Positions 1-17,953 of a stretch of 42,470 nucleotides of DNA are shown here, piece by piece. Origin of the DNA: a virus; IMG/VR virus record IMGVR_UViG_3300030732_000036, positions 1 to 42,470 of that record; one strand, 5' to 3'. Each line of letters opens with the position of its first letter. Position 1 is the stretch's first letter. Under the pieces are notes generated by a model that was given only the letters and a program-made list of their open reading frames with translations, made no database searches and had not been told where the DNA came from. Both the position numbers and the translations under genes were made by a program.

Positions 1-99
1 CCCAGAGGCCACACATTCTTCCGGGCGCGAATCGTTCGCAGTTGCATTGCGGGCTGCGCTCGCCGTTCGACCAACTGCTTGCAGCGCAGATGGTCAGGG
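1..99. repeat. terminal direct repeat, copy 1 (identical to 42372..42470)
   Basis: The first 99 nt (cccagaggccacacattcttcc...gcagatggtcaggg) recur base-for-base as the last 99 nt. An ORF reads through the junction, so this is a circular-assembly overlap or terminal redundancy. Confidence 0.95.
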
Positions 100-283
100 C
101 GCGGCAGTGGCCGCTATCGAATTCGCCCTGGAATCTGACGACGGCGATGGGTTCCTGCGCAACTGGTTCAATGGCGAGTTCGACATTTGCCGCGAGCACT
201 GGCCGGAAGCGCCAGAAGGCGTCTATATCGGCGCTGACCCGCTCTACAGACCTGCCGCCAAAGGTGCAGGCGGTCAGGGATGA
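1..283 (+). CDS. hypothetical protein, C-terminal part of a wrap-around ORF (N-terminal part is 41911..42470; 247 aa after circularisation)
   Basis: The frame of 41911..42470 is still open at the window end. After removing the 99-nt overlap it is in phase with the ORF ending at TGA 281..283 (461+283=744 nt). Confidence 0.6.
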   Translation, partial: PEATHSSGRESFAVALRAALAVRPTACSADGQGAAVAAIEFALESDDGDGFLRNWFNGEFDICREHWPEAPEGVYIGADPLYRPAAKGAGGQG

Positions 284-660
284 AAACGCTACGCGAAATC
301 CGCATGTGGCACTGGCGCCAGGTCGTGAACAGCCGCCAGCTCGAGCGCGACCACGAGGCCGGCCTGCAGGCGTGGGGCAACGTCCACTACAGCACCAGCA
401 GCATCGCCAGGCACAGGGCCGACGCCGACCGCCACCTGCGCGCGGTGCAGACGCTGAACGAGTTCGTGACTGGGGTGGCCGAGTACGATTGCATGGAGGC
501 CGATGGCCGAGACCCTGACGGCCTTGCGCGGCGGGCGCGCGGCGAACCGGTGGATGTCATTACGGTTAAAGGGTCTGGGCCCTTCATTGCGGCGCTGCGG
601 GCGAATGCGCCGAGCAAGCCCTTTGCGTCCGCTATCGTCGATGGCGGGGTTGATCCATGA
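280..660 (+). CDS. hypothetical early protein (126 aa)
   Basis: ATGA start/stop overlap with the upstream ORF, inside a same-strand coupled gene chain. No motif recognised. Confidence 0.6.
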   Translation: MKTLREIRMWHWRQVVNSRQLERDHEAGLQAWGNVHYSTSSIARHRADADRHLRAVQTLNEFVTGVAEYDCMEADGRDPDGLARRARGEPVDVITVKGSGPFIAALRANAPSKPFASAIVDGGVDP

Positions 661-857
661 GCGCCACCGGCGAAACGGGCATCGTGCAAACCACCACGTT
701 CACCTGCCAGGTGTGCGGCCACGTCGAGCAGACCGTGGAGGATGTGTCCCTGTACAGCGAGACTATCGTGATGTCGCCGAATGGCGGGTGGAATTTTGAC
801 TACGTGGAGATAGACGGGGTCGAAAAGTTCGTTTGCCTGAAGTGCATGCCGAAATAA
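657..857 (+). CDS. small zinc-ribbon-like protein (66 aa)
   Basis: ATGA overlap with the upstream gene. Two CxxC pairs (CQVCG ... CLKC). Last gene before the promoter/hairpin cassette. Confidence 0.6.
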   Translation: MSATGETGIVQTTTFTCQVCGHVEQTVEDVSLYSETIVMSPNGGWNFDYVEIDGVEKFVCLKCMPK

Positions 858-858
858 T

Positions 859-888
859 TTGTACAAATAAACCGGGCTCGGCTATACT
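859..888 (+). promoter_or_regulatory. sigma70-like promoter, rightward: TTGTAC-N18-TATACT, with the -35 inside palindrome TTTGTACAAA (858..867)
   Basis: Hexamers read directly in the 152-nt non-coding gap. Same palindrome-plus -10 module as at 5692-5720, 29435-29463 and 33069-33096. Confidence 0.45.
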
Positions 889-916
889 CATTTCCGCCAA
901 GCCTTATTTACCTAGT

Positions 917-1000
917 ATGCCCCCGTGGGGGCGCTCCCACCCGGTACTGGCCGGGAGGCTTGGCAGCCGGGAGCGCGCCCACGGGGGCATTTTCATTTCG
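917..1000 (+). terminator. structured hairpin S1: 22-bp stem (917-938 / 969-990, 21 of 22 paired), 30-nt loop with two mini-hairpins, then TTTCATTTC
   Basis: Pairing checked base by base; the only mismatch is G930/G977. A T-rich tract follows, and the GGAG RBS of the next gene comes directly after it. Confidence 0.5.
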
Positions 1001-1009
1001 GAGTGCCAA

Positions 1010-2194
1010 TTGCAATATAAAATTCTCCAAGGCGATTGCGTCGAAGCCATGCGCGCGATGCCTGATAACTCCTTCGACTCGATCGTGACCGACCCACCCT
1101 ATGAACTCGGGTTCATGGGTAAGGGCTGGGACAGTACCGGCATCGCCAATAGTGTGGAGATGTGGCGCGAGGCGCTGCGCGTGCTCAAGCCTGGCGGCCA
1201 CCTGCTGGCGTTCAGCGGCAGCCGCACCTATCACCGCATGACGTGTGCGATTGAGGATGCCGGGTTCGAGATCCGCGACCAGATCATGTGGGTCTACGGC
1301 TCGGGCTTCCCGAAGTCGCTGGACGTGAGCAAGGCAATCGACAAGGCGGCCGGCGCAGAGCGCGAGGTTGTTGGCACCAAGCTGGGGCTACCGGGCTACT
1401 CGCTTGCCGAGGACAAAGGGCGAAGCACTTACAGCGCTGAAGGGCGCAGCAGTGAGGTTGAGTGCGCAATCACCGCGCCAGCAACCGACGACGCCCGCCA
1501 GTGGTCCGGCTGGGGCACCGCCCTGAAGCCGGCGCACGAGCCTATCTGCGTGGCGCGCAAGCCGCTGGCCGGCACCGTGGCGGCGAACGTGCTGCAGTTC
1601 GGCACTGGGGCGATCAACATCGATCGGTGTCGAGTGCCTACCGATGGCGCTGATGCGCGAAACTGGTCTGGCGATCGTGGCCAGGTTGGCACTTCACGCA
1701 ATTCAGATTTTGCGTTGACGGCCGGCAGTGCTGCTGAACTCGGACGCTGGCCAGCCAACATCATCCACGATGGCAGCGACGAGGTGGTGGCGCACTTTCC
1801 GATCACGACTAGCGGCGCTGTAAAGCCCGGCACCTGTGCGGCTGCGGACGAGAACCGTCTAACCTTCGGGCAGTTTGACGGCTACGAAATGAAACCGCGT
1901 GAAAAAGACACCGGCAGCGCCGCTCGCTTCTTCTACTGCGCCAAGGCGAGCAAGAGCGACCGCGGCCCCGGCAATACTCACCCCACCGTCAAGCCGCTGG
2001 CGCTGATGCGCTACCTGCTGCGCCTGGTGACGCCGCCGGGTGGCCGTTCGCTCGATCCGTTCATGGGCAGCGGTACCACGATCGTGGCCGGCCTGCAAGA
2101 GGGCCTGTCCATGACGGGCATCGAGCTGCACGCCGAACATATCGAGATTGCGGACCGCCGCGCGGAAATCGAACTTATCGGAGACCTGCTGTGA
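1010..2194 (+). CDS. DNA methyltransferase, N6-adenine/N4-cytosine type (beta-class order: DPPY ... FxGxG)
   Basis: Motif IV is SIVTDPPY near the N-terminus and motif I is DPFMGSGTT near the C-terminus. TTG start at 1010 has GGAG 6 nt upstream and gives the typical N-terminus (M)QYKILQGDC. An in-frame ATG at 917 is an alternative start but lies inside the S1 stem. Confidence 0.85.
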   Translation: MQYKILQGDCVEAMRAMPDNSFDSIVTDPPYELGFMGKGWDSTGIANSVEMWREALRVLKPGGHLLAFSGSRTYHRMTCAIEDAGFEIRDQIMWVYGSGFPKSLDVSKAIDKAAGAEREVVGTKLGLPGYSLAEDKGRSTYSAEGRSSEVECAITAPATDDARQWSGWGTALKPAHEPICVARKPLAGTVAANVLQFGTGAINIDRCRVPTDGADARNWSGDRGQVGTSRNSDFALTAGSAAELGRWPANIIHDGSDEVVAHFPITTSGAVKPGTCAAADENRLTFGQFDGYEMKPREKDTGSAARFFYCAKASKSDRGPGNTHPTVKPLALMRYLLRLVTPPGGRSLDPFMGSGTTIVAGLQEGLSMTGIELHAEHIEIADRRAEIELIGDLL

Positions 2195-4302
2195 TGGCCA
2201 CGCCCGACACCCTCCCCGCCCTGCTCCCCGTCACCGTCGACGGCATCCCCGCCAGTATGCTCGACACCCCCCGCTGGGCGCCGTGGCGTGCGGTGTGGAA
2301 CGCCAAGAAGGAGAAATACGAGAAGATCCCCCACCGCGCCGACCGGGTGCAGTCCGGCCTGTCGAACAAGTCGAGCAAGGGCTGGTGCGCCTTCCATGTG
2401 GCCATGGCCGCCTACCTGAAGAATCCGGACCTGTTCGCCGGCGTGGGCTACCTGATGACCGGCGCGCACGATCTGGTGGCGGTGGACCTCGACCATTGCG
2501 TGCAGGACGGCGAGATCGCGCCGTGGGCGGCGGAGGTGGTGGCCAAGCTGGACAGCTACACCGAGGTCAGCCCGTCCGGCCGAGGCCTGCGGGTGATGAT
2601 CGAGGGGACCATCGAGCGGGACTGGACCAATCACGATGTGGGTATCGAGGTGTACGGCGGCGGCGACGCCCGCTTCGTCACCATCACCGGGGCCAGGCTG
2701 CCGGGCAGTCCGGGAACGGTGCGCCGGCCGCGCGGCGGGGCCATGGACGCGATCACCGCGCGCTACCGCAAGACCAAGACGGCGGCCGAGATCGAGGACC
2801 TCCACCTGCCGGCGCTGCTGGGGGCTGACGAACTGCCCGATATCAGCGAGCTGGAGATCCCGCCGCACGCGCGCAACTTCCTGATGGACGGCGCCGAGCC
2901 TGGCCGGGACCGTTCGCAAGCCCTGTTCGCCACCTCGATCGCGCTGCGCCAGTCCGGGCTCGAGCGGCAGGTGATCCTGTCCATACTGGAGGCGAACGAG
3001 CACGCCATGGAGGTGGCCATGGACCACCGGCGCCAGGATTACGACAAGGCCGTGCGCTACCTGTGGAAGGACCATTGCCAGGCCGGCGTGGCGCGGGCCG
3101 ATGGGCTCCGCCAGCTGTCCATGGACGAGTTCGACGAATTGGAGGCCCAGGAAGGGCCCGCCAAGGCCTCGCCGGTGGCGGCCGGGCAGAACGGGGTGGC
3201 TGACGACTTCGACGTGCTGGACGACGATTTTGCCGACCTGCTGGGCGTGGGCCCAAAAGTGGACCGGGCGCCGGTCAAGCTGCCGCGGTTCACCCCCTTG
3301 CCGCTGACCTCCTTCATGCACCGCAAGCCTGCGCGCTGGATCGTGCGCGGCGTGCTGCCGCAGGCGGGCCTGGTGTTGCTTTATGGCGACAGCGGGGCGG
3401 GCAAGACGTTCTTCGCGCTGGACCTGGTCGGCGCCGTGGCGCGCGGCATCGCCTGGCGCGGCCACACCGTGAGCAAAGGCCGGGTGGTCTATATCGTGGC
3501 CGAGGGCGCAACGGGCTTCCGCAATCGGGTGCTCGCCTATTGCGAGTTCAACGGCATCGAGCCGGCCGACCTCGACATTCTGGTCATCCCGGACGCACCC
3601 CAGCTGCTCGACAAGGCCCACATCAAGGAGCTGGTGCTGGCGATCAAGAAGGTCGGGCCCGTGGCGATCGTGGTGGTCGACACCTACGCCCGCGCCATGG
3701 CCGGCGCCAATGAGAACGACGCCAAGGATACGGGGCAGGCCGTTGCCCATTGCGACCTGATCCACCGCACCACCGGGGCGCTGGTGCTGCTGGTGCACCA
3801 CAGCGGCAAGGACGGCAGCCGAGGGGCGCGGGGCAGCGGGGCGCTTCGGGCGGCGGCAGACGCCGAGATTGAAGTGTTGCAATTACGCGACTACCGGGCC
3901 GCCACCGTCACCAAGATGAAGGATGGCGAGGACGGCAAGGAGTATGCGTTCAAGCTCAACGAAGTCACCATAGGGCTGGACGACGAGGGCGAGGCTATCA
4001 CCTCCTGCGTGGTCGAGGTCCGCGCCAGCGGGGCACCCGCCAAGGCCATGGAGAAGGTGCGCTTGACACCCGTGCAGCAGCTGGTGCTGAGGGCCTTTGA
4101 CACCGCCGCCGATCTGGGCGGCCAGGGCATGCACTATGCCGACATCAAGCAAGCCGTGGTCGACCAGATACCCCGCGATCTGGAGAAGAAAAAGGACAAT
4201 CGCCACCGCGATGTGGGCAATGCGATCGAGGCTTTGGTCGGTTATGGTTATCTAAATAGCATCGAAGGTGGCATGTTGGTACGTGCAGAAAATAACGTGT
4301 AG
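2194..4302 (+). CDS. bifunctional primase-polymerase (AEP/prim-pol N-terminus) fused to a RepA/DnaB-like (AAA_25-type) helicase
   Basis: N-terminal half has VAVDLDHC (DxD) and YTEVSPSGRGL motifs. C-terminal half has Walker A (GDSGAGKT), Walker B (IVVVDTYARAM) and LVHHSGKDGSRGARGS. ATG 2194 overlaps the upstream stop; GTG 2191 is an alternative start. Confidence 0.85.
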   Translation: MATPDTLPALLPVTVDGIPASMLDTPRWAPWRAVWNAKKEKYEKIPHRADRVQSGLSNKSSKGWCAFHVAMAAYLKNPDLFAGVGYLMTGAHDLVAVDLDHCVQDGEIAPWAAEVVAKLDSYTEVSPSGRGLRVMIEGTIERDWTNHDVGIEVYGGGDARFVTITGARLPGSPGTVRRPRGGAMDAITARYRKTKTAAEIEDLHLPALLGADELPDISELEIPPHARNFLMDGAEPGRDRSQALFATSIALRQSGLERQVILSILEANEHAMEVAMDHRRQDYDKAVRYLWKDHCQAGVARADGLRQLSMDEFDELEAQEGPAKASPVAAGQNGVADDFDVLDDDFADLLGVGPKVDRAPVKLPRFTPLPLTSFMHRKPARWIVRGVLPQAGLVLLYGDSGAGKTFFALDLVGAVARGIAWRGHTVSKGRVVYIVAEGATGFRNRVLAYCEFNGIEPADLDILVIPDAPQLLDKAHIKELVLAIKKVGPVAIVVVDTYARAMAGANENDAKDTGQAVAHCDLIHRTTGALVLLVHHSGKDGSRGARGSGALRAAADAEIEVLQLRDYRAATVTKMKDGEDGKEYAFKLNEVTIGLDDEGEAITSCVVEVRASGAPAKAMEKVRLTPVQQLVLRAFDTAADLGGQGMHYADIKQAVVDQIPRDLEKKKDNRHRDVGNAIEALVGYGYLNSIEGGMLVRAENNV

Positions 4303-4316
4303 GTAAAATTATGCAT

Positions 4317-4437
4317 GCTTCATTTGCTTCATTTGCTTCAAACTGCTTCATTTGAAGCAAATCACCCTTGCTTCATTTGCTTCACTCGCTTCACCCCTAA
4401 AGGGGTGATGAAGCGAAGTGAAGCAAAAAGGTGAAGC
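4317..4437. repeat. iteron array: 7 direct GCTTCA and 4 inverted TGAAGC copies; probable replication origin
   Basis: GCTTCA starts at 4317, 4326, 4335, 4345, 4370, 4379 and 4388. TGAAGC starts at 4353, 4409, 4419 and 4432. Spacing is 9-10 bp. Central palindrome is GCTTCACCCCTAAAGGGGTGATGAAGC. The array has AT-rich flanks and lies directly after the primase-helicase gene. Confidence 0.7.
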
Positions 4438-4475
4438 AGTACAGGGCGTGTAAATTTTTACAGATTGGAGTGGTC

Positions 4476-4814
4476 ATGACCTGGTCGGACGAATCAAGGC
4501 AATCGCGCGGTTACGACGCGGCGTGGGAGAAGGTCAGGGCCCGGGTGGTGGAGAGGGACAAAGGCCTGTGCCAGGCTTGCCTCGTGCATGACCGGGTGAG
4601 CATCGGGCAAGAGGTGGACCACAGGGTGCCCAAGGCCGAATGCGCTAAGCGCGGGTGGACCCGGGCCCAGACCGATGCCGAGTCGAACCTGTGGCTGCTG
4701 TGCAAGCCCTGCCACAAGGCCAAGACGGCGAGGGAGAACGGCCGGGTGCTGGTGCCCAAGGTCGCCTACGGGGTGGACGGATGGCCGCTTGACAACCCCG
4801 AAAGGCTGGTTTAG
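4476..4814 (+). CDS. HNH endonuclease (packaging-associated type)
   Basis: Motif pattern CQAC...EVDHRVP...NLWLLCKPCHKAKT. GGAG lies 5 nt upstream of ATG 4476. The longer ORF from 4431 would start inside the iterons. Confidence 0.85.
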   Translation: MTWSDESRQSRGYDAAWEKVRARVVERDKGLCQACLVHDRVSIGQEVDHRVPKAECAKRGWTRAQTDAESNLWLLCKPCHKAKTARENGRVLVPKVAYGVDGWPLDNPERLV

Positions 4815-4849
4815 GATTCGTCCTACTGGTGTGGTCGCATCGGTGGTGC

Positions 4850-4934
4850 AAGGGCTTTGCCTTGCGTTCTCAGACGGGAGACCGTTGGTTGCGACCACAA
4901 CCCGAGAACGTGAGGCAAAGCCCTTTTTCTATTT
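4850..4934 (+). terminator. structured hairpin S2: 22-bp stem (4850-4871 / 4904-4925), 32-nt loop with two mini-hairpins, then TTTTTCTATTT
   Basis: All 22 positions pair as plus-strand RNA; the two non-Watson-Crick positions are G-U wobbles. A U-tract follows immediately, then GGAG and ATG 4947. Confidence 0.6.
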
Positions 4935-4946
4935 CCGGAGCGAAAC

Positions 4947-5399
4947 ATGGACCGCATCATCGTCGTGACCACAACGCACGCCAGCACCGCCGACCAGCTC
5001 AACACGCTGCGCAAGCGCGTGATCGAGCAACTGCCGGCGACGGGCTATGTCGTCCTGGTCGTGCCAAACCACGTCGAGGTGCACGAGCTGGGCACGCGGC
5101 AGCAGCCCGAGCGGCATGGGCAGGCCGAAGTCGAACAGATGCTCGGCGAGCCGGGCACTGCGCCAGCGGCGCCGGACACCACGACCAGCCCATCGGGCAG
5201 CAAGGTCGAGCACGTCAGCGCGGAGGTGTTCGACGAACCAATCCGCTACGTGTGGCTGTCCCGGGAGGAAACGACCGATGACCAGCGCGCCATGGCGGTA
5301 GGCGTTGACACGATGCGCGTGCCGCCACGGTGGGCGATCTCGCTCGACCAGCTCACGCCCGACCAGGTGCTGTTCGCCCGTCCGATCTGCGAGCTGTGA
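4947..5399 (+). CDS. hypothetical protein (150 aa)
   Basis: GGAG lies 7 nt upstream of the ATG. GC-rich codon pattern typical of the genome. No motif recognised. Confidence 0.6.
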   Translation: MDRIIVVTTTHASTADQLNTLRKRVIEQLPATGYVVLVVPNHVEVHELGTRQQPERHGQAEVEQMLGEPGTAPAAPDTTTSPSGSKVEHVSAEVFDEPIRYVWLSREETTDDQRAMAVGVDTMRVPPRWAISLDQLTPDQVLFARPICEL

Positions 5400-5401
5400 C
5401 C

Positions 5402-5539
5402 ATGGCAAAGATGGACCTCACCAAATTCCTGGAAGCCGTTGGCGGCAAACCGCTGCCGCAATGGCAGCGCGACATGATCAACGCGCTGTGGGCTGCACGC
5501 GTCACGAAGGATCTGTGCGAAAAATTACGCAAGGGGTAG
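5402..5539 (+). CDS. hypothetical small protein (45 aa)
   Basis: The ATG lies 2 nt after the upstream stop. Weak RBS and short length. Confidence 0.35.
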   Translation: MAKMDLTKFLEAVGGKPLPQWQRDMINALWAARVTKDLCEKLRKG

Positions 5540-5691
5540 GGCGGGTCGAAACTTTAAAAGCTTGACTTTTGGAAGGACCGGCGCTAGCCTTCGATTTAAC
5601 GCAAAGGCATAATTTCTTGGGGAAACATTACTGAGATACAACACAATTCAGGGCAATCGGAGGGGTAGCGGGACCTACGAGCTACATGCAA

Positions 5692-5719
5692 ATTATAGCA
5701 CGAAACCGCATTTGTACAA
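5692..5719 (-). promoter_or_regulatory. leftward extended -10 promoter: TTGTAC-N16-(TGc)TATAAT, with the -35 inside palindrome TTTGTACAAA (5711..5720)
   Basis: Minus strand reads TTATTTGTACAAATGCGGTTTCGTGCTATAATTTGCATG. It points away from terS and against all flanking genes. Confidence 0.45.
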
Positions 5720-5726
5720 ATAATTT

Positions 5727-6215
5727 ATGACCACGAAAACCGCCCCCCGCAGAGCCCGATCCGACAGCGCCACCGCCGCGATAAACGCCGCAAAAAATGC
5801 CGCGCTTGGCGACCTTATGCCCCCCGAGCACGTAAAAATTTCCCCTGAAGTTCTGCCCGACTACATCGCCATCGTCCGCGCCCGCGCGCGCGACGAGTGG
5901 AGCGAACTGGACCTGATCGTCGCCGCCCAGCTGGCCGAGGTGATCGGGCAGCAGCGCGAGCAGACTGCGAAAATCACGCTCGAAGGCGACGTGGTGGAAA
6001 ACATGAAAGGCACCTTGGTTGCCAACCCCCGGGTGACGATTCTCGAACGCCTGGCCGGCCGACAAATGGCCTACATGCGCACGCTGCAGATGGGCGGCCG
6101 GGTGCCCGGCACCGCCGGCGACAAGCGCAAGAAGCAAGGCGCGCGGCAGCTTGAACGTGGCGCCCGCGCCGCGCACCAACAAGCCGCCGACGAAACCAAC
6201 AACCTGCTGGCGTAA
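5727..6215 (+). CDS. terS: terminase small subunit (P27-family-like)
   Basis: Lies immediately upstream of terL and is coupled to it by TAATG. Basic N- and C-termini. The call rests on position and loose similarity only. Confidence 0.6.
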   Translation: MTTKTAPRRARSDSATAAINAAKNAALGDLMPPEHVKISPEVLPDYIAIVRARARDEWSELDLIVAAQLAEVIGQQREQTAKITLEGDVVENMKGTLVANPRVTILERLAGRQMAYMRTLQMGGRVPGTAGDKRKKQGARQLERGARAAHQQAADETNNLLA

Positions 6216-7786
6216 TGGCCGCGCGAGCAAAAAAGCCGATGACCCGCGGCGAGCGGGTGATTGCGTTCATCGAAACCTACTGCATCGTGCCCGAGGGCGA
6301 CTTGATCGGCCAGCCGATGCGGCTCGAACCGTTCCAGCGCAAGTGGGTGCTGGAGGTGTACGACAACCCGCACGGCACCCACACCGCCGTGCTGTGCATC
6401 GGCCGCAAGAACGGCAAGACCGCGCTGATCGCGGCCCTTCTGCTGTGCCACATCGCCGGCCCCGAGGCGGTGCAGAATTCCCAGATCGTCAGCGGCGCCA
6501 TGTCCAAGGACCAGGCGGCCATCGTGTTCAAGCTGGCGCGCAAGATGGTCGAAATGTCCGGCGACCTGGCCGCCCGGGTGCGGGTGTTCCCCTCGGTGAA
6601 ATCCTTGCTCGGCCTGTCGAAGAACGTTGAGTACAACGCGCTGTCCGCCGAGGCGAAGACGAAGCACGGGCTCTCGCCGATCCTGGTGATCTTCGACGAG
6701 ATGGGCCAGGTGCGAGGGCCGATGAACGACTTCGTGACCGCGCTCGAGACCGCGCAAGGTGCGTATGACCACGCCCTGAAGTTCATCATCTCGACCCAAG
6801 CGCCGAGCGACGCCGACATGCTGTCCATCATCATCGACGCGCAGCTCGACCCGCTCAACACCCCGGACCCCCAGGTGGTGGTGCACCTCTACACCGCGCC
6901 GATGACGCGCAAGGGCCCGGACGGCAAGGACATCGAGATCCCTTTCGACGACGAGGACGGCATGCGCGCGGCGAACCCGGCGCTCGGGGTGTTCCGGTCC
7001 ATGAACGACCTGCGCAAGCTGTGCACGAAGGCCCACACCACGCCGTCGTTCGAGCCCGAGTTCCGGAACCTGAACCTGAACCAGCGGGTGGAGGCGGCGG
7101 CGCCGTTCGTGCCGCGGTCGGTGTGGATGGCGAACGGCGCCGACCCGGTGGCCAAGCCGCGCCCGCGCGTCTATGGCGGCCTGGACCTCTCGGCCGTCAA
7201 CGACTTGACCGCCCAAGTCCTGGTAGACGCCGACGACGGCAGCGTGTGGCCAACGTTCTGGTTGCCGGCGCACGGGCTCAAGGAGAAGGCGAAAGCGGAC
7301 AAAGTTCCCTATGACATTTGGGAGAAGCAAGGATTCTTGCAGACAACCCCCGGAAAAGCGATAGAATACGAGTTTATAGCCTTGCATTTGCGCAAAGTGT
7401 TCGACGAGAACGACGTGCAGCTGTTCGGTTTCGACCGTTACAACATGAAATTCCTGAAGCCTTGGCTCGCAAAAGCCGGGTTTAGCCAAGAGGAAATTGA
7501 CAAATTTGTTGAATTCGGGCAGGGTACGGCCAGCATGACCCCCGCCCTGCGCGACCTGGAGGTAAAATTGTTGAACGCACAACTTAAGCACGGCAACCAC
7601 CCTGTGCTCAACATGTGCGCAGCCAACGCCAAGGTGGTAGGCGACAGCGGCGCCCGCAAGTTCGACAAGCGCACCATCCGCGGTCGCATCGACGGTATGG
7701 TGGCCCTGGCCATCGCGGCGGGCGTGATGCCGCAGCCGGTCGAGGAAGAGTCCGGCACCCTTGAGGATTACCTGGCCACGGCATGA
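6215..7786 (+). CDS. terL: terminase large subunit
   Basis: Walker A-like motif CIGRKNGKT and Walker B-like motif ILVIFDEMG, followed by a C-terminal nuclease-type region. Sits directly upstream of the portal gene. Confidence 0.9.
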   Translation: MAARAKKPMTRGERVIAFIETYCIVPEGDLIGQPMRLEPFQRKWVLEVYDNPHGTHTAVLCIGRKNGKTALIAALLLCHIAGPEAVQNSQIVSGAMSKDQAAIVFKLARKMVEMSGDLAARVRVFPSVKSLLGLSKNVEYNALSAEAKTKHGLSPILVIFDEMGQVRGPMNDFVTALETAQGAYDHALKFIISTQAPSDADMLSIIIDAQLDPLNTPDPQVVVHLYTAPMTRKGPDGKDIEIPFDDEDGMRAANPALGVFRSMNDLRKLCTKAHTTPSFEPEFRNLNLNQRVEAAAPFVPRSVWMANGADPVAKPRPRVYGGLDLSAVNDLTAQVLVDADDGSVWPTFWLPAHGLKEKAKADKVPYDIWEKQGFLQTTPGKAIEYEFIALHLRKVFDENDVQLFGFDRYNMKFLKPWLAKAGFSQEEIDKFVEFGQGTASMTPALRDLEVKLLNAQLKHGNHPVLNMCAANAKVVGDSGARKFDKRTIRGRIDGMVALAIAAGVMPQPVEEESGTLEDYLATA

Positions 7787-9108
7787 AAAACAAGACCCTT
7801 ACCAGCCTCGCCAAGGGCATCTTCTTCTCCATTCGCGACGCGCTCGCGTACCGTCAGGCCGTTCACGACGCCAACAAGAATGTCACCATCAACACCGGTG
7901 ATAGTACCGCCAGCCGCGCGCCCGGCATTGATGTGGCTCTACAGCTGTCCACGGTGTGGGCGTGTGTGCGCCTGATCGCCGAGACCATATCCACGCTGCC
8001 CCTGTTCACCTACGAGACCGTGATGGTCGACGGCAAGCGCACCCGCCGCATCGCCGACGATATCCCCCTTTACTCCCTGCTGCACGACTCCCCGAACGCG
8101 GACATGACGGCCGTCGAGTTCTGGGAGGCGGTGCTGTCGGGCCTGCTGCTGTGGGGGAACGCCTACGTGCTCAAGACCTACGGCACCGGCGGTCGGCTGG
8201 TGGCGCTGACGCCGCTGAACCCCGGAGTGGTGACGCCGCGGCGCACACCAGGCGGGGCGATCGAGTACCTGTACGGCGACCGAACGGGACAAAAGATCTA
8301 CAGCGAGCGGGACATTTGGCATGTTAAGGGGTTCGGCACAAACGGGCTGTGCGGCCTGTCGCCGATCGGTGTGGGCTGGCGCTCGATGGCCGGTGCCGCC
8401 GCCGCCGAGGTGGCCAGCGCGAACACCTTCACCAGCGGCATGCGGGTGCAGGCGACCGTATCGGTCAAGGAGTACCTGAAGCCAGAGCAGCGCGAGCAGA
8501 TGAAAGAAAAGGTCATGGGCGCCGTGTTCGGTAACGCCCAGACCGGCCAGCTGCAGCTGCTCGAGGGCGGCGCCGAGATGAAGCAGCTATCCATCAACCC
8601 GGTGGACGCGCAAATGCTGGAAACGCGCCAGTACGGCGTCGAGGATCTGTGCCGCTGGTTCGGGGTGCCGCCGTCGATGATCGGCCACGGCACGGCCACC
8701 TCGAACTGGGGCACCGGGCGCGAACAGCAGAACATGGGTTTCGTACAGTACGTGCTGCGCGCCTACATGGTCCGCATCGAGCAGGGGATCAAGAAGTCCT
8801 TGATGACGCCGGCCGAGCGCCTGCGCTACTTCGCCGAATACAGCCTGGACGCGCTGCTGCGCGCCGACACCGAGACCCGGTTCAAGGTCTACGCCACCGC
8901 CACACAGAACGGGCTGAAGACCCGCAACGAGTGCCGCGCGTTGGAGAACGACCCACCGGTGCCGGGCGGCGATGAATTGACTGTACAAAGCAACCTCATC
9001 CCCCTTACACTGTTGGGCAAAATCACTAATACTGCCCAAACAGCAAAATCAGCCCTGCTCGATTGGCTGGGCCTCACCAAGAAGGATCACGATGGACTAC
9101 CTGACTAA
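7783..9108 (+). CDS. portal protein (HK97 family)
   Basis: ATGA coupling to terL. Portal signature LSTVWACVRLIAETISTLPL. Size of 441 aa fits. Confidence 0.9.
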   Translation: MKNKTLTSLAKGIFFSIRDALAYRQAVHDANKNVTINTGDSTASRAPGIDVALQLSTVWACVRLIAETISTLPLFTYETVMVDGKRTRRIADDIPLYSLLHDSPNADMTAVEFWEAVLSGLLLWGNAYVLKTYGTGGRLVALTPLNPGVVTPRRTPGGAIEYLYGDRTGQKIYSERDIWHVKGFGTNGLCGLSPIGVGWRSMAGAAAAEVASANTFTSGMRVQATVSVKEYLKPEQREQMKEKVMGAVFGNAQTGQLQLLEGGAEMKQLSINPVDAQMLETRQYGVEDLCRWFGVPPSMIGHGTATSNWGTGREQQNMGFVQYVLRAYMVRIEQGIKKSLMTPAERLRYFAEYSLDALLRADTETRFKVYATATQNGLKTRNECRALENDPPVPGGDELTVQSNLIPLTLLGKITNTAQTAKSALLDWLGLTKKDHDGLPD

Positions 9109-9757
9109 AGCGATCCCGCTGGAGATCAAGGCCCAAGGCGCTAACGGCACCTTCTCAGGGTATGGCTCGGTGTTCAACGTGCTGGACAAGGGCGGCGACA
9201 TCATCGTGCCGGGCGCCTTCACGGCCAGCCTGGCGCGCTGGAAGGCGTCGGGCCGCAACGTGCCCATGCTGTGGCAGCACGACACCGACGAGCCAATCGG
9301 GCACTGGCCTGAGCTGAAGGAAGACGACCACGGCCTGTTCGGCACCGACGCCCAGCTGTGGCTGGAGGACGCGCCGTATGCGCGCCTGGCGCAGAAGGGC
9401 ATGAGCACGAAGACGATCACCGGCCTGTCGATCGGCTACCGCGTCAAGCGCTTCTCGAAGGACACGGCGACCAGCGTCTATACGCTGCAGGAGCTGGATC
9501 TGGTCGAGATTTCGGTGGTCACGAACCCGATGAACGACCAGGCCCGCATCTCCGATGTGAAATCCATGATCGAGGCCGGCCGCTTGCCGAGCCTCCAAGA
9601 ATTTGAGCAGTTCCTGCGCGAGGCAGGCGGCTTCTCGAAATCGCAGGCCACCGCCATCGCCGGTAATGGTCTGTCGAAACTGCTGCACCGGGGTGAGCCT
9701 GGCGGCGACAATGGCGATATCCTGGCCGCGCTCAGCGGCTTCAAAATCACCCCATAA
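9092..9757 (+). CDS. prohead maturation protease (HK97 / S78-U35 type)
   Basis: Motif pattern FSGYGSVFNVLDKGGDIIVPGAF ... LWQHD...PIG ... SIGY. Lies between portal and capsid genes. Confidence 0.85.
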   Translation: MDYLTKAIPLEIKAQGANGTFSGYGSVFNVLDKGGDIIVPGAFTASLARWKASGRNVPMLWQHDTDEPIGHWPELKEDDHGLFGTDAQLWLEDAPYARLAQKGMSTKTITGLSIGYRVKRFSKDTATSVYTLQELDLVEISVVTNPMNDQARISDVKSMIEAGRLPSLQEFEQFLREAGGFSKSQATAIAGNGLSKLLHRGEPGGDNGDILAALSGFKITP

Positions 9758-9770
9758 AAGGAGTAACACC

Positions 9771-10952
9771 ATGCCACGCGACGACAACGACGCAACCGAA
9801 ATTAAAACCGAACTGGCCAAGATCGGCGATCAGGTCAAAGAATACGGCGAGAAAGCGCTGGCCGAAGCCAAGCGCGGTATCGCCATGACCGAGGCCGAGA
9901 AAGCCCGTGTTGACGAAATCCTGGTCAAGCAAGGCGAACTGCAGGCCGGCCTGACCGAGGTCGAGCAAAAGCTGGCACGCCAGGGCGAGCAGAACGACGC
10001 CCGTGTCAAATCGCTGGGCACCCAGGTGATCGAAAACGAGGCCTTCAAAAAGGCGCAATCCGCAGGCCAGCTGCGCCAGAAGGGCGGGCGCGTCACGGTG
10101 GAGATCAAGGCCATCGCCACGTCGACCTCGAACGTGGTCACCCCCGACTACCGCCCAGGCATCAACACGATTCCGAATCGCCGCCTGACGATCCGCGACC
10201 TGATTGCGCCAGGCCGCACCTCGTCGAACCTGGTGAACTACATCAAGGAAACCGGCTTCACCAACAACGCGGCACCGGTGGCCGAGGGTGCGCGCAAACC
10301 TGAATCGACCATCACCCACGCGCTGTCGAGCGCCGCGGTGAAAAAGCTGGCGCACTTCATGAAGGCCTCGACCGAGATCCTCGACGACCTGCCGGCGCTG
10401 ATGTCGCAGATCGACGCCCGCCTGGTCTACGGCCTGAAGCTGATCGAGGAAGGCCAGCTGCTCAAGGGTGCCGGCACCGGCAACAACCTGAACGGCATTT
10501 ACACCCAGGCCACCGCGTTCTCGGCGCCGATCGCCGTTACCTCGCCGACCAAGATCGATACGCTTCGCCTGATGCTGTTGCAAGCCGAGCTGGCCGAGTA
10601 CCCTTCGGACGGCATCGTACTGCACCCATCGGAATGGGCCACGATCGAGCTGCTGAAGGACACCACCGGCCGTTACCTGATCGGCAACCCACAGGGCAGC
10701 CTGTCGCCGACCCTGTGGGGCCGCCCGGTGGTCGAGACCCAGGCCATGACGGTCGACACCGCCCTGGTGGGTTCGTTCAAGCTGGCCGCGCAGATCTTCG
10801 ACCGCGAAGAAGCGTCGATCGTCATCGCGACCGAGAACGAAGACGATTTCGTCAACAACCTGATCACCATCCTGATCGAGGAGCGCCTGGCGCTGGCCGT
10901 GTACCGTCCTGAAGCCTTCATTAAGAACACCAACTTCGACGGCAGCGTGTAA
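9771..10952 (+). CDS. major capsid protein (HK97 fold family)
   Basis: AGGAG RBS. N-terminal coiled delta-like region, then RDLI..GRTSS..V.Y..E...N.A..VAEG..KPES typical of HK97-family capsids. The upstream extension from 9603 was rejected. Confidence 0.9.
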   Translation: MPRDDNDATEIKTELAKIGDQVKEYGEKALAEAKRGIAMTEAEKARVDEILVKQGELQAGLTEVEQKLARQGEQNDARVKSLGTQVIENEAFKKAQSAGQLRQKGGRVTVEIKAIATSTSNVVTPDYRPGINTIPNRRLTIRDLIAPGRTSSNLVNYIKETGFTNNAAPVAEGARKPESTITHALSSAAVKKLAHFMKASTEILDDLPALMSQIDARLVYGLKLIEEGQLLKGAGTGNNLNGIYTQATAFSAPIAVTSPTKIDTLRLMLLQAELAEYPSDGIVLHPSEWATIELLKDTTGRYLIGNPQGSLSPTLWGRPVVETQAMTVDTALVGSFKLAAQIFDREEASIVIATENEDDFVNNLITILIEERLALAVYRPEAFIKNTNFDGSV

Positions 10953-10959
10953 AACGGCG

Positions 10960-10979
10960 GGCGGCGCTTCGGCGCCGCC
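10960..10979 (+). terminator. GC hairpin with UUCG tetraloop after the capsid gene (partial terminator or mRNA stabiliser)
   Basis: GGCGGCGC-TTCG-GCGCCGCC lies 8 nt after the stop. Only TT follows, so termination is probably partial. Confidence 0.4.
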
Positions 10980-11002
10980 TTGCACACCCAAAGGACAGAA
11001 TC

Positions 11003-11242
11003 ATGAAAGTCAAAGCGAGAGCACTGGACACCTTCTTCGATGGTCGCCTGCACGCGGTCAAGGACGGCGTCTACACCATGAACAAGGGCAGCGCCGACGA
11101 GCTGGTGGCGGTGGGCCTGGTCGAGATTGTCGGCGATGCCGACGACGATGCTATCGACGACCTGGTCGACACCAAAATGGAACCGATCAGCCACAACAAA
11201 ATGGAGCCCGCGCCAAGGAACAAGGCCGGCGGCAAAAAGTAA
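11003..11242 (+). CDS. hypothetical small acidic/basic protein (79 aa)
   Basis: AGGA RBS. Acidic stretch followed by a duplicated KMEP motif and a Lys-rich tail. Confidence 0.55.
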   Translation: MKVKARALDTFFDGRLHAVKDGVYTMNKGSADELVAVGLVEIVGDADDDAIDDLVDTKMEPISHNKMEPAPRNKAGGKK

Positions 11243-11254
11243 AAGGAGCACGAC

Positions 11255-11722
11255 ATGGCAACAGGCAATATGAAGTGGTTCGCACAGGCGCTGCTCGATG
11301 GGTTCAAGAAACTGCACGACCTGAGCGCCGATGATATCCGTATGGGCATCGTGACTAACGCTGTGGTGCCGACGCTAGCCACGGCGGACCCGCGTTGGGG
11401 TGCCGGCGGCACCACCGATTTCTCGGCCAATCAAGTCCCTTTGGCGACCGGCTACGCAGGCCCTGTGGCGCTCGATAACGAGACATGGACCCTGGTGTCC
11501 AACGTGCCGACGCTGCGTGCCGATATTGAAGATATTCCGATGGACGCCAGTGGCTTCACCACCGGCGCCTATGGCATCATCTTCAACAACACGGACGCAG
11601 GCAAACGCTGCCTGGGCTTCGTCGAGATTTCGGCGGCGGGATCGGGCTCGAATGTCGGCGCGATCTTGCGTCTCGACTGGTCGGGTGCGAGCAACGACAT
11701 GTTCACCATCACCCAGGCGTAA
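11255..11722 (+). CDS. hypothetical structural-module protein (155 aa)
   Basis: AAGGAG RBS. Beta-rich composition, located in the head module. Function not recognised. Confidence 0.6.
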   Translation: MATGNMKWFAQALLDGFKKLHDLSADDIRMGIVTNAVVPTLATADPRWGAGGTTDFSANQVPLATGYAGPVALDNETWTLVSNVPTLRADIEDIPMDASGFTTGAYGIIFNNTDAGKRCLGFVEISAAGSGSNVGAILRLDWSGASNDMFTITQA

Positions 11723-11728
11723 GCACAC

Positions 11729-12817
11729 ATGGTCACGCCAACAAACGTCAGCTATTCGGCGGGCAGCGGCGAGACCATTTATGCGGGTCTCTTCGACCCC
11801 GGGGTGCAGCCGGCATGGCTGGCGGCGCACCCGGCGCTATTCGAGTGGTTCGAGATCCCCGGCACGTCCGGGGCGGATGGTGCGGCTGTTGACGCCTATT
11901 GCGGGATGGCTCTCAAACAGGCCACCGCCGAAATCATCGTCGCGCTGAGTGGCGGGCATCTGGATTCGTACGACAACCGGGTCAGCAGTATTTCCTTGCT
12001 GGATGACGCCCCAGCTTGGGTTCGCCGTCACGAGCCAACGCCAGCCGGGCAGGTTCTCGCCAACCAGTCATACAACGCGGACGGCCTGCCGGCATCGCGC
12101 CATACCCGGTATCAATGCATCTACGTGCCGCAACTGAACCGCTTAATCATGCTGGGGTCGCCGTCGCTATATGGCGGCAGCGTAGTGTCGTCTACGGAAT
12201 CGAACGGTTTCGACCTGGCGACGAATACATGGGATGCGGCAGGAACCTGGACACCAACGGCAAACGGCGGGTCATACGGGTCTGCCGTTGACGATCTTGG
12301 CAATATCTGGTTGCGTGGCGGTGGAAAATGGCTTCGTGAAACCGACACGATAGTGTCAACTGCTGTTGTTCGTGCGCCGAACATGTGGGACCCAGTGCGT
12401 CGGCATCTTTTCACTATGTACACCGGAGACGGGCAGGGCTTTGGAACTGACTTCGTGGCCAAGACCGTCCACGAGACGACGGGCGTCGGCACCAACATCA
12501 CGTTCAACGACAGCGCGGCGTACACCGAATTCCGAGCGCTGAGCCTTTCCTATTGTGCGATGACATACAACCCGCTGAACGGACGCTATCTCTATTATTT
12601 CGGCCAAGGTGCAAATCAGGGCGTGATTTACGAGGTAGCCCCGAACGACACGACCGTGTGGGACATGGCGAAGATCGTACAGGGCGCAGGAACCATCCTG
12701 CCTGTGGCGGCGCCTAGCGCGGGCATCCAGACCAAATTCCAATACGTCGCCGCGCTCAAAGGTATCGTGATGCTGGCGCGTAAGACATCGAACTTATACT
12801 TTATGCGACTGGAGTAA
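11729..12817 (+). CDS. beta-propeller-like (Kelch / galactose-oxidase-like) protein, function unknown
   Basis: 362-aa ORF with repeated G/W/Y-rich blade-like segments. Third codon positions look visibly less GC-rich than in flanking capsid genes. The fold call is tentative. Confidence 0.55.
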   Translation: MVTPTNVSYSAGSGETIYAGLFDPGVQPAWLAAHPALFEWFEIPGTSGADGAAVDAYCGMALKQATAEIIVALSGGHLDSYDNRVSSISLLDDAPAWVRRHEPTPAGQVLANQSYNADGLPASRHTRYQCIYVPQLNRLIMLGSPSLYGGSVVSSTESNGFDLATNTWDAAGTWTPTANGGSYGSAVDDLGNIWLRGGGKWLRETDTIVSTAVVRAPNMWDPVRRHLFTMYTGDGQGFGTDFVAKTVHETTGVGTNITFNDSAAYTEFRALSLSYCAMTYNPLNGRYLYYFGQGANQGVIYEVAPNDTTVWDMAKIVQGAGTILPVAAPSAGIQTKFQYVAALKGIVMLARKTSNLYFMRLE

Positions 12818-12820
12818 CAC

Positions 12821-13876
12821 ATGCCCGTTCAATCTGACGGAACCACAGGGTATCTCGAGCACCCCGATAAGATTGTCAGCGCCTACCCGATGTCACTAGC
12901 GGTATGGGGAACTCGCACCTCGTCGTCAGGCGATCAGTATTGGATCACTCAAGCTCAGTCCAACGGTGACCGATACGTCGGGGGCTACCAGAAAAGCGCA
13001 AGCGAAGCAAAGCTCGCGGTAATGCAAGAGCCCGGTTCGTCTCGCTCGGCGCAGAAATCGGGAGCCCCTAACGTCAGCTCAACCGTGCTGCAACTGATGG
13101 TGGTTGTTATCCACAGCAAGGACAGTCGGACTATTTATTTCGGTGACACGAACGGCGTCACCGACAATGCAACCGGTGTAAACGGCATTGCGAACCACAA
13201 CCTGTGCACGTTGGGCGCTCGGCACTACAACAGCGGAGCGGCGTCCCTATTCATCAAGGGGGCGCTGGCCGAAGCGCACTGGTATAACGTCGCGCTGACC
13301 CCCGCAGACGTCGGCAACATGATCGCCGATACGGTCAAGCCGGAAGCAATTTCAGGTTGGGTCGATGGTTGGATGCTGAAGGACTTCGAGGCCGACGGCA
13401 CGTACACCTCGATCGGCGGGACGCGCACCATGACCGCTGTTGGCGGTATCAGCGCATCGGCGCTGGCACATCCTATCAATCGGTCAAGCGGCGTCACCAC
13501 CATCAACTGCACCCCTGCCAACGCGGACGCGCAGGGTCTGACAGCGGCCGTCACGTCGGGCGGGGTGGTGGCGATCAGCTGCACGCCGGGGGCGGCCACC
13601 GCCGCCGGGGCGACCGCAGCGGTTAGGCGCTTGATCCATTCCGATTACGCCATCAATAACGCCGGCATCGCGCAGGCCAGCGCGGCGGTCCATTATTCGT
13701 GGTTCCCGGGCGGCCGTGTGGGGGCCCTGACCGGCATCACCCCAACAGAGGGCACCGCGACCTTGCAGGCGGACGGCAGCTTTAAAACGAATATCGACCT
13801 GGTCCCGGGCGCGCTGATGTACAGCGTTCTGGCGGGCTCCTACTTGGATGACGCGGTCTACTGGGAATTCTTCTAA
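12821..13876 (+). CDS. LamG / concanavalin-A-like lectin-fold protein with two C-terminal 24-aa Cys repeats
   Basis: GGAG RBS. Laminin_G_3-like end motif IKGALAEAHWYNVALTPADV. Repeats TTINCTPANADAQGLTAAVTSGGV and AISCTPGAATAAGATAAV lie at 13496-13624. Confidence 0.65.
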   Translation: MPVQSDGTTGYLEHPDKIVSAYPMSLAVWGTRTSSSGDQYWITQAQSNGDRYVGGYQKSASEAKLAVMQEPGSSRSAQKSGAPNVSSTVLQLMVVVIHSKDSRTIYFGDTNGVTDNATGVNGIANHNLCTLGARHYNSGAASLFIKGALAEAHWYNVALTPADVGNMIADTVKPEAISGWVDGWMLKDFEADGTYTSIGGTRTMTAVGGISASALAHPINRSSGVTTINCTPANADAQGLTAAVTSGGVVAISCTPGAATAAGATAAVRRLIHSDYAINNAGIAQASAAVHYSWFPGGRVGALTGITPTEGTATLQADGSFKTNIDLVPGALMYSVLAGSYLDDAVYWEFF

Positions 13877-15111: not shown

Positions 15112-15467
15112 TGCACGGCGGCCAACTTGACCGGCGCATCACGATTTGGCGCCCGACCGTCGTCGAAGACCCCGAGTATGGGCCGCAGCCAGGCGAGCGC
15201 GTGCCGGTCGCCACCCGCGTGCCGGCCCAGGTGCTGGATTCCCTGCCGAGCAAGAGCGAGAGCACGGAAGCGGGGGTCAAGGTGGCCGACAGGCCCGCGC
15301 GCGTGCGCATCCGCTACCTGCGCGGCATCACCTCGGACATGGAGATTACGCTGCACGACGGCCCGGACGCGAGCGGCGATGTGGAATTCAAGATCGTCGG
15401 CGGCCCTGCCGAAATAGGCCGGCGCGAGTGGACCGAATTTACAGTGACGCACTACTCGACACCATGA
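15111..15467 (+). CDS. head-tail joining / head-closure protein (SPP1 gp16-like)
   Basis: TAATG coupling. Motif pattern LDRRITIWRP......G......WA..RIRY. Expected position after the connector. Confidence 0.8.
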   Translation: MHGGQLDRRITIWRPTVVEDPEYGPQPGERVPVATRVPAQVLDSLPSKSESTEAGVKVADRPARVRIRYLRGITSDMEITLHDGPDASGDVEFKIVGGPAEIGRREWTEFTVTHYSTP

Positions 15468-16419: not shown

Positions 16420-16485
16420 AATAAGCAACAGTTTTATCAGCCCGCCCGTGGGCGCCCTGCGCGCGGGCTCAATTAGGAGAAAATC

Positions 16486-16938: not shown

Positions 16939-17051
16939 GAATCCGGCCCGCGAGGGCCGCAACCTGGCACTGACCTGCCGCGTGTCGCCCTTCGAGAGGG
17001 CGCGCGCGGCGGGGAGGTGCTTTTACCTCCTCTCGATAAAGGGAAATCAAA

Positions 17052-17905: not shown

Positions 17906-17953
17906 GACCGCAGGCCGTAAAGGCCTGCACCTACATAGAGGGCGGCGCCACGT

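Follow-up and report, generated by a model that had tools for sequence, protein, structure and literature searches.

The 42,470-nucleotide virus record IMGVR_UViG_3300030732_000036 (positions 1 to 42,470, analyzed as a whole and hereafter called the window) contains two elements, S1 (917-990) and S2 (4850-4925), that are real, selected structures of the plus-strand RNA and represent an undescribed motif class, composed of a promoter, a 5' leader, a branched terminator with leader-complementary loops, a U-tract and a ribosome-binding site (RBS). We put at about one half the probability that S1 and S2 are cis-encoded leader riboregulators, or attenuators, that alternate between two forms, one clamped by the leader and the other a terminator. 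Both elements occupy non-coding gaps, S1 at the border between early and middle genes and S2 at that between middle and late genes, and each lies 30-35 nt 3' of a sigma70-type promoter. These promoters are the two best sigma70-like sites in bases 1-20000, and their position immediately upstream makes S1 and S2 each a promoter-proximal leader. The motif so far comprises 13 S1 members, two S2 members and one member of a third type, designated L298. The sigma70-like promoters and the complementarity between leader and inner hairpins are new with respect to an earlier annotation of this DNA, made from its letters without database searches (the sequence-only reading).

Architecture of S1 and S2

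In line with the sequence-only reading, which had given the positions of S1 and S2 and described them as twins, both the sequence and RNAfold predictions reveal in each case an outer stem (P1) around an interior of 30 nt (S1) or 32 nt (S2) that holds two hairpins (P2 and P3). S1 and S2 are also the best short-range inverted repeats of the window (I1 and I7). The features of S1 are the following, PK1 and PK2 being pairings between leader and inner hairpins.

859..888, plus strand: sigma70-type promoter TTGTAC-N18-TATACT, read by the promoter scan as TGTACA-N17-TATACT (860-888)
896..903, plus strand: leader strand A1, GCCAAGCC, at or beside the predicted RNA 5' end, complementary to 957-964 (PK1)
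912..917, plus strand: leader strand B1, CTAGTA, complementary to the P2 loop at 945-950 (PK2), abutting the first P1 base
917..938, plus strand: 5' arm of outer stem P1 (fold, inverted-repeat scan, covariation)
940..955, plus strand: hairpin P2, CCCGG-TACTGG-CCGGG (fold), with a stem that is invariant and a loop that is conserved in the family
957..968, plus strand: hairpin P3, GGCT-TGGC-AGCC, whose 5' arm and loop are the partner of A1
969..990, plus strand: 3' arm of P1 (fold, inverted-repeat scan, covariation)
990..1012, plus strand: tail with U-tract TTTTCATTTC, Shine-Dalgarno (SD) sequence GGAG at 1000-1003, spacer TGCCAA and TTG start codon at 1010 of an N6/N4 DNA methylase gene

The corresponding features of S2 are:

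4789..4817, plus strand: sigma70-type promoter TTGACA-N17-TAGGAT, matching at 10/12 positions, the best in bases 1-20000 and located inside the 3' end of an HNH endonuclease gene
4830..4839, plus strand: leader strand TGTGGTCGCA, complementary to the P3 loop region 4890-4899 (TGCGACCACA); inverted repeat I18
4850..4871, plus strand: 5' arm of P1 (fold, inverted-repeat scan, comparison with the homologous contig L001)
4873..4886, plus strand: hairpin P2, GACGG-GAGA-CCGTT (fold)
4887..4902, plus strand: hairpin P3, GGTTG-CGACCA-CAACC (fold)
4904..4925, plus strand: 3' arm of P1 (fold, inverted-repeat scan)
4924..4949, plus strand: tail with U-tract TTTTTCTATTTCC, SD sequence GGAG at 4937-4940 and ATG start codon at 4947 of a 150-amino-acid open reading frame (ORF), followed by the probable cos gap, terS, terL and the portal gene

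The 22-nt arms of P1 form 21 pairs and one G·G mismatch in S1, and 22 pairs including two tandem G·U pairs in S2. The minimum free energy amounts to -66.6 kcal/mol for S1 (z = -5.9) and -62.1 kcal/mol for S2 (z = -7.8), and in both cases 0/200 shuffled sequences are as stable. The tails read TTTCATTTC-GGAG-TGCCAA-TTG (S1) and TTTTTCTATTTCC-GGAG-CGAAAC-ATG (S2), so that the six-nucleotide spacer reported earlier for S1 stands, whereas the spacer of S2, previously counted as seven, has six nucleotides.

In both elements, a U-rich tract of 7-9 nt directly follows a G+C-rich stem, as is characteristic of intrinsic terminators. S1 and S2 are not simple terminator hairpins, which normally have a stem of ∼5-14 bp and a loop of 3-8 nt, whereas here a stem of 20-23 bp carries a three-way junction of 29-35 nt. 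It is because the long stem closes a three-way junction that a consensus terminator scan missed both elements. The P1 5' arm of S1 (917-938) is palindromic (CCCCCGTGGGGG), as it is in L001 and in a second homologue, L183 (CCCTAGGG), so each arm could make its own small hairpin before P1 closes; this property is not conserved family-wide.

Two observations concern S2 only. A leader segment, TCGCATCGG (4835-4843), can also pair at 8/9 positions with the SD region CCGGAGCGA (4936-4944); sequestration of the SD sequence by the leader was seen in the fold of the window only, is not conserved in L001 and was dropped. The P3 loop sequence GACCACAAC recurs in sense orientation at 4966-4974, in the first codons of the 150-amino-acid ORF, and this repeat is not conserved in L001 either.

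Homologues and compensatory changes

Homologues of S1 were searched for at loci anchored on the primase/helicase and HNH genes and with two DNA-pattern scans, yielding 13 distinct sequences in uncultured phage contigs of 40-47 kb. The metagenome pattern scan gave 120 matches with only three new true members (L183, L212 and L218). A scan of the genome_contigs set with the S1 core pattern likewise gave 120 matches, none of which passed the full-motif filter; these are chance matches and yielded no host. All 13 homologues are preceded by a promoter of the form TTGnnn-N17/18-TAnnnT, the -10 hexamer ending 6-7 nt before the leader motif GCCAA, and all have kept the U-tract, which is present in the S2 of L001 and in L298 as well. 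Some S1 leaders have -10-like linkers (TATAAT in L183, TAGAAT in L282); a sigma70 pause element is not general.

Despite different outer-stem sequences, the three-way junction is predicted separately for each S1 homologue by single-sequence folding, and the length of P1 is held at 20-23 bp across members. In a gap-free MAFFT alignment of the closest subgroup (six sequences), 100% of the stem cells are paired and six stem pairs have changed on both sides. The 11-sequence alignment has 99% of its cells paired and 17 pairs changed on both sides, with compensatory changes in 14/18 pairs of P1 (100% of cells paired) and in 2/4 pairs of P3. The observed values are not attained in any of 500 shuffles, and pairing is down to 31-47% when the partners are shifted by 1-3 columns. 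Because a subgroup-derived model was used to fit this larger alignment, it is biased toward the structure; the folds predicted independently for single sequences and the MAFFT alignment of the subgroup are in agreement with it. A weak spot in P1 recurs 12-15 bp from its base, as a G·G mismatch in the window, a 2x2 internal loop in the L002 type and a G·U pair in L001 and L004.

Cells that are not Watson-Crick in the S1 family comprise 11 G·U and no A·C pairs; S2 has two G·U pairs and its L001 homologue one. Since G·U pairs occur on the plus strand only and A·C pairs are absent, the paired molecule is the plus strand, most simply as RNA.

S2 is known from two phages, represented by the window and by the L001 contig, the primase of which is 68% identical to that of the window. 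Between the two, P1 displays two compensatory pairs and one change from G·U to G-C, and the P2 tetraloop has changed from GAGA (window) to UUCG (L001). All six bases of the P3 loop are replaced (CGACCA in the window, UUUGCC in L001), and the L001 leader is re-matched to the new loop over 10 nt (TGGGCAAACA with TGTTTGCCCA). The S2 promoter is kept in L001 (TTGACA-17-TAAGCT) and in L002 (TTGACG-17-TAGGAT). The DNA pattern for S2 finds only the L001 contig, and the alignment of the 150-amino-acid protein finds only L001 and L002 and no other database homologue.

A third, unrelated sequence of the S1 design is located in the more distant phage L298 (2640-2795), at the position equivalent to that of S1, 3.3 kb 5' of the HNH gene. 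It combines a promoter (TTGATC-17-TACAAT), a P1 of ∼23 bp, a U-tract and a stable fold (z = -6.8) with a leader, TGTGGAGGC, that is complementary to the P3 loop GCCUCCACA over 9 nt. This P3 loop, CCUCCA, is anti-Shine-Dalgarno-like. A generic scan of ∼1.1 Mb of viral loci on both strands, in which a stem of ≥14 bp had to enclose exactly two hairpins and be followed by a T-tract, returned S1 and S2 with their homologues, one other family, two false positives and nothing else.

Scored with the S1 covariance model, S2 reaches 18.7 bits versus 15.2 bits for the reverse strand. Being barely above the reverse-strand score, it shares with S1 a design and architecture and not a demonstrable sequence ancestry, consistent with the view in the sequence-only reading that no recent duplication is involved. 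That reading had also held that the non-canonical pairs of S2 are G-U on the plus strand only and that arms differing in sequence reflect a structure selected at the RNA level. Both claims are borne out, the latter by the compensatory changes in S1 and by the two stem compensations and the re-matched loop and leader in S2. The examination of relatives that it proposed did uncover compensatory changes among the 11 aligned S1 members. For S2 the outcome is divided, as the element is compensated in L001 and absent from relatives that keep the late promoter.

Leader-loop pairing, the proposed switch and its alternatives

The 5' bases of the predicted S1 and S2 transcripts are complementary to the second inner hairpin over 8-10 nt. 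In S1, this pairing (PK1) joins the leader sequence GCCAAGCC to GGCTTGGC (957-964). When leaders are shuffled, the complementarity has a p value of ∼4e-4 to 5e-3 per case (∼4e-4 for S1 and ∼1e-3 for S2). The PK1 consensus, GCCAARYC with G-R-Y-TTGGC, is Watson-Crick paired in 11/11 aligned members with two compensatory columns, and PK1 persists in L275 and L282 as 5+5 and 5+3 bp around a bulge. Members of the S1 family have another leader pairing (PK2), between the P2 loop and the six leader nucleotides immediately 5' of P1. The variable pair of PK2 is G-C in the window and L001, G·U in most members and A-U in L275 and L282, and in L275 a compensatory 1-nt insertion is found on both sides (CCAATTA with TAATTGG). 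Alignment columns 73/74, in P3, covary both with the leader and with the P3 3' arm; covariation of the P3 5' arm with two partners is the signature of alternative pairings. The duplexes between leader and interior have predicted energies of -19 to -28 kcal/mol. In predicted folds of nascent transcripts cut before the P1 3' arm, the leader is always paired to the P3 region; full-length transcripts fold into P1, P2 and P3.

According to the proposed mechanism, each element would be its own short transcription unit, with a host-type promoter, a structured leader of ∼100 nt and then the operon. In the terminator form, P1 (20-22 bp) over P2 and P3 would, together with the U-tract, act as an intrinsic terminator that releases a ∼100-nt RNA and keeps the polymerase out of the operon. 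In the clamped form, the 5' bases of the transcript would pair with the loop and arm of P3 and, in S1, also with the P2 loop. This clamp helix could form ∼25 nt before the P1 3' arm is made and would delay or prevent closing of the P1 base at the U-tract, giving read-through, and the terminator form would close its last pairs beside the U-tract only if the clamp yields. The methylase-primase/helicase-HNH operon would be under the control of S1, and S2 would control entry into the late operon, that is the 150-amino-acid ORF and, across cos, the terminase, head, tail and lysis genes. An occupant of the leader or loops would set the ratio of termination to read-through, favoring termination; candidates are a protein of the phage or the host, or the free S RNA, which would act in trans in the way that the CI RNA of phage P4 acts on its leader. 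A change of GCCAAGCC to GCCTTGCC in the S1 leader would break PK1. We infer, as parts of this model, that transcription terminates at the U-tract, that clamp and P1 exclude one another, in which direction the effect goes and what the input is.

The terminator- or antiterminator-like character suggested in the sequence-only reading is supported. PK2 ends on the first P1 base and has its partner at the junction, ∼20 bp away, so that on geometric grounds PK2 and a complete P1 should not be able to coexist; mutual exclusion of PK1 and P1 is uncertain. Upstream or nearby RNA structure is reported, from experiments in a recent preprint (bioRxiv 10.64898/2026.06.17.733018), to suppress intrinsic termination generally. 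Relatives carry ordinary terminators, consisting of a small GC-hairpin and a T-tract, just 5' of the S1 promoter (L003 at ∼4640-4670, L024/L278, L004 at 3152-3200 and L276 at 3283-3315). With an ordinary terminator already upstream of its promoter, S1 would be more than an operon-end terminator. The gene after S1 varies, resembling a cytosine-C5 methyltransferase (ENV-type motif) in L001 (3520-5000) and being different again in L003, L023 and L026, which suggests that S1 tracks the start of the operon and not one gene. No conserved protein beside S1 qualifies as a candidate regulator, as the ORFs 5' of S1 are not common to the relatives that share it.

Several points weigh against the attenuator reading. 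The PK1 linker measures 9-14 nt for a stem of 20-23 bp and at best barely spans the helix. The clamp pairs with neither P1 arm, so that the antagonism rests on geometry; PK2 abuts the P1 base and has its partner at the top, ∼60 Å away. With PK1 as their sole leader pairing, S2 and L298 might accommodate the pseudoknot and P1 together in a single compact fold. A clamp that always wins kinetically would leave the terminator idle without regulation. A protein-family scan compared ∼40 ORFs of the window with PHROGs and ten of these also with Pfam. Several small ORFs had no match, and among the ORFs scanned no Q, N or other antiterminator was detected, nor any integrase, repressor or phage RNA polymerase. 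The evidence for S2 consists of two sequences. L002 keeps the late promoter and a homologue of the 150-amino-acid ORF and has, in place of S2, an unstructured leader (z = +0.5); S2 is also absent from L003, and no S1-like element accompanies the primase operon of L276 and L279. The absence of S2 despite a kept promoter and downstream gene, and that of S1 from some relatives, indicate that the elements are dispensable modules. Moreover, S1, S2 and L298 are known from the sequences of metagenomic phages without a cultured relative.

Comparison with known RNAs was carried out with Rfam. At the gathering threshold, no family was matched in the window and nine relatives, and searches of each element in E-value mode returned generic miRNA-hairpin noise. 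Phage P4, run with HK022 through the same library as a positive control, was recognized correctly: its CI RNA matches the C4 family (RF01695, clan CL00128) at 74.9 bits, the gathering score being 45 bits. The RF01695 model matches neither S1 nor S2, both at the gathering threshold and at E ≤ 10 in 201-nt searches. The architectures are nevertheless alike. Like the c4 RNA of phages P1 and P7 and the CI RNA of P4, S1 and S2 are operon leaders behind a constitutive promoter in which a long stem encloses two hairpins, 17 bp around two adjacent hairpins in the Rfam C4 consensus. In S1, S2 and L298, as in P4, the loop of the second hairpin is complementary to an upstream site in its own transcript; the P4 loop CCUGUGAA is complementary to the upstream seqA UUCACAGG in the same leader and to UUCACAGGA, which overlaps the next RBS. 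As with S1, the operon controlled in P4 holds a primase gene.

These likenesses raise the alternative that S1 and S2 are themselves antisense RNA genes of the C4/CI type, the ∼100-nt product of which would pair in trans with the leader, and sometimes the RBS or start region, of further transcripts through the P3 (and P2) loops and, by forcing termination or blocking translation, exert negative feedback, the leader in cis serving as decoy or folding aid. Searched with the S1 model, the P4 immunity region gives the CI RNA itself as best match, but the score, 8.1 bits, is not significant. S1 has two leader segments for its two loops, and this resembles the a1/b1-a'/b' arrangement of phage P1 c4. 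In addition, sites complementary to the S1 P3 loop, of the GCCA(A) type, are found at the downstream RBS or start codon in the window (TGCCAA at 1004-1009, loop TTGGCA), L282 (GCCAAACC), L275 (ATCGCCA), L023 (TGCCAAG) and L001. The match extends over 6-8 nt in the first four (p = 0.006-0.05 each) and over 5 nt, which is not significant, in L001. Judged by sequence, such a site may be a translational target similar to seqC or a2. However, it is missing from L002, L212, L218 and L026, in all from about half of the S1 family, and from S2. Neither a third copy of the element nor a trans target was found in the window, the genome of which has no other complementary sites above chance.

Other differences also argue against membership of the C4/CI class. 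The stem of S1 and S2 is 20-23 bp long and followed at once by a U-tract, so that the terminator is fused to the element, whereas P4 has a separate terminator, and the CCA-like 3' context for RNase P is lacking. Their leader site occupies the extreme 5' end of the RNA and is separated from the stem by 9-14 nt, whereas P4 seqA lies more than 100 nt away. The window phage shows no lysogeny module among its scanned ORFs; with neither integrase nor repressor found it looks virulent and lytic, and an immunity role is unlikely. Finally, the leader of the RNA itself would compete for the loops. We consider this alternative unlikely, and file S1 and S2, by analogy, as elements that probably work like the C4/CI class without being members of it.

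Slightly less probable again is that S1 and S2 are plain promoter-proximal terminators that depend on a phage antiterminator protein, leader-loop pairing merely shielding the RNA 5' end. In the textbook system of this kind, PR'-tR' of phage lambda, the protein is Q. The placement of S2 mirrors that of PR'-6S RNA-tR', with a strong, constitutive-looking promoter of host type, a short terminator-shaped leader and late genes across cos; the U-tracts are conserved and PK1 starts at or within a few nucleotides of the predicted 5' end, where pairing would shield the RNA from 5'-end-dependent decay (RNase E/RppH). Nevertheless, the scanned ORFs yielded neither a Q homologue nor a protein resembling N or another antiterminator, and the ORFs 5' of S1 are not conserved among the relatives that share it. 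The S terminator differs from tR' in being a branched three-way junction with leader-loop pairing, a design that also heads the replication operon (S1). A plain terminator leaves unexplained the covariation of both loops with the leader and the abutment of PK2 and P1, and relatives use ordinary small terminators elsewhere.

A put-like identity, which had been among the functions suggested earlier, is not supported. The put sites of HK022 are two adjacent stem-loops without enclosing stem or U-tract, and act on downstream terminators. They resemble S1 and S2 in occurring as two copies per genome just 3' of promoters, with a common shape, different sequences and an action at the RNA level; compared by architecture only, S1 and S2 differ from put in being terminator-shaped, with an enclosing 22-bp P1 and a U-tract. 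With attenuators and riboswitch platforms, including pT181-type antisense attenuation and 'tug-of-war' riboswitches, the elements share two conserved alternative pairings 5' of a U-tract, of which the one transcribed earlier forms first. In contrast to these systems, the competing helix overlaps neither terminator arm and clamps the interior of the terminator to the 5' end, and neither a ligand-binding core nor a leader peptide or antisense promoter was seen for S1 and S2. A riboswitch was considered and judged unlikely, as no core is conserved between the interiors of S1, S2 and L298. A broader proposal, which is tentative and on balance doubtful, is that S1, S2 and L298 constitute an undescribed class of self-contained switch. 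In this class the 5' end would veto, mechanically or topologically, completion of the stem at the U-tract without arm overlap, the terminated ∼100-nt RNAs would act in trans on later leaders in the manner of C4/CI and so shut the gate, and a virulent phage would time its replication and late operons without protein.

By analogy with the sites in T7 early mRNAs and the lambda N leader, S1 and S2 could instead be RNase III processing or mRNA-stability elements, in which the P1 duplex would be cut to free the leader or leave a protective hairpin. P1 has a length of about two helical turns (20-23 bp), which is long for a terminator and reaches the ∼20 bp of double-stranded RNA expected of a substrate, its weak spot lies 12-15 bp from the base, and the position in a phage 5' leader is shared. 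Unlike RNase III sites, the S stem is topped by a three-way junction, and the U-tract, the coupling to a promoter and the leader-loop covariation are not explained by processing. Such cleavage would be compatible with the attenuator reading rather than an alternative to it, and as a separate explanation we regard it as improbable.

Very improbable is a DNA-level element (cruciform, origin, cos or terminase-binding site) or a chance palindrome: S2 does lie near the probable cos region and an iteron array is located between S1 and S2, but the wobble pairs are all G·T on the plus strand with no A·C, every member has a promoter 5' and a T-tract 3' on one strand, S1 is far from cos, contigs of relatives end 3' of the 150-amino-acid ORF and not at S2, and the folding z-scores given above are low for both elements. 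A packaging RNA similar to the pRNA of phi29 was ruled out, as packaging is terminase-based and S1 is far from cos.

Genome setting and significance

The window is a complete phage genome of ∼42.37 kb, assembled circularly from a metagenome, as indicated by the direct terminal repeat of 99 bp (1-99 and 42372-42470). A second sample holds a 3.2-kb fragment identical to the window, which encodes the 150-amino-acid ORF. No cultured close relative was found by megablast and tblastn against 50,697 phage records; TerL is ∼54% identical to that of PAJU2/16-3/HK97, and PolA ∼50% identical to that of BPP-1-like phages. No genes for transfer RNA or transfer-messenger RNA were found in a scan of the window. 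The gene order around S1 and S2, from the ORF scan, is:

ahead of the methylase, plus strand: small early ORFs of unknown function
1010-2194, plus strand: N6/N4 DNA methylase
2191-4302, plus strand: primase/helicase, after the methylase
4431-4814, plus strand: HNH endonuclease
4947-5399, plus strand: 150-amino-acid ORF, ATG start at 4947, after S2
after the 150-amino-acid ORF, plus strand: terS, HK97-like terL, portal, head, tail and lysis genes
minus strand: T7-like replication set with PolA, helicase, exonuclease, gp2.5-type single-stranded DNA-binding protein and endonuclease VII

The gap between the primase/helicase and HNH genes contains an iteron array (4306-4440) with at least seven copies of TGCTTCA and at least five of the inverted TGAAGCA. 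At the same position, relatives carry short repeats that are TGCTTCA in L003 (7192-7300), GTACACAC in L002 (7122-7236) and of the CCTTCC type in L001 (7137-7239). The array could be a replication origin or an operator.

An AT-rich gap at ∼5540-5726 precedes terS. In L001, L002, L004 and L355 alike, the contig ends between the 150-amino-acid ORF or HNH gene and terS, the L355 end mapping to window position ∼5578. This sequence evidence suggests that the physical genome end (cos) lies in the AT-rich gap, in which case late transcripts that start at the S2 promoter have to traverse cos. Between HNH and terS, L003 has an ORF with collagen-like Gly-X-Y repeats (8177-8500), and the window has no such ORF there.

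S1, S2 and their relatives define a new RNA motif with well-supported structures that are open to modeling and searching. If the attenuator reading is correct, a group of uncultured HK97-like cos phages would gate its middle and late operons by a compact RNA device, in which a C4/CI-like branched antisense RNA, its leader target and a terminator, separate in known systems, are fused. It would provide a natural case of a helix that antiterminates without overlapping the terminator, a principle now explored with synthetic 'tug-of-war' riboswitches. It would also extend the C4/CI principle beyond temperate elements of the P1/P4 type to a lytic-looking phage, and beyond the reach of the Rfam model.

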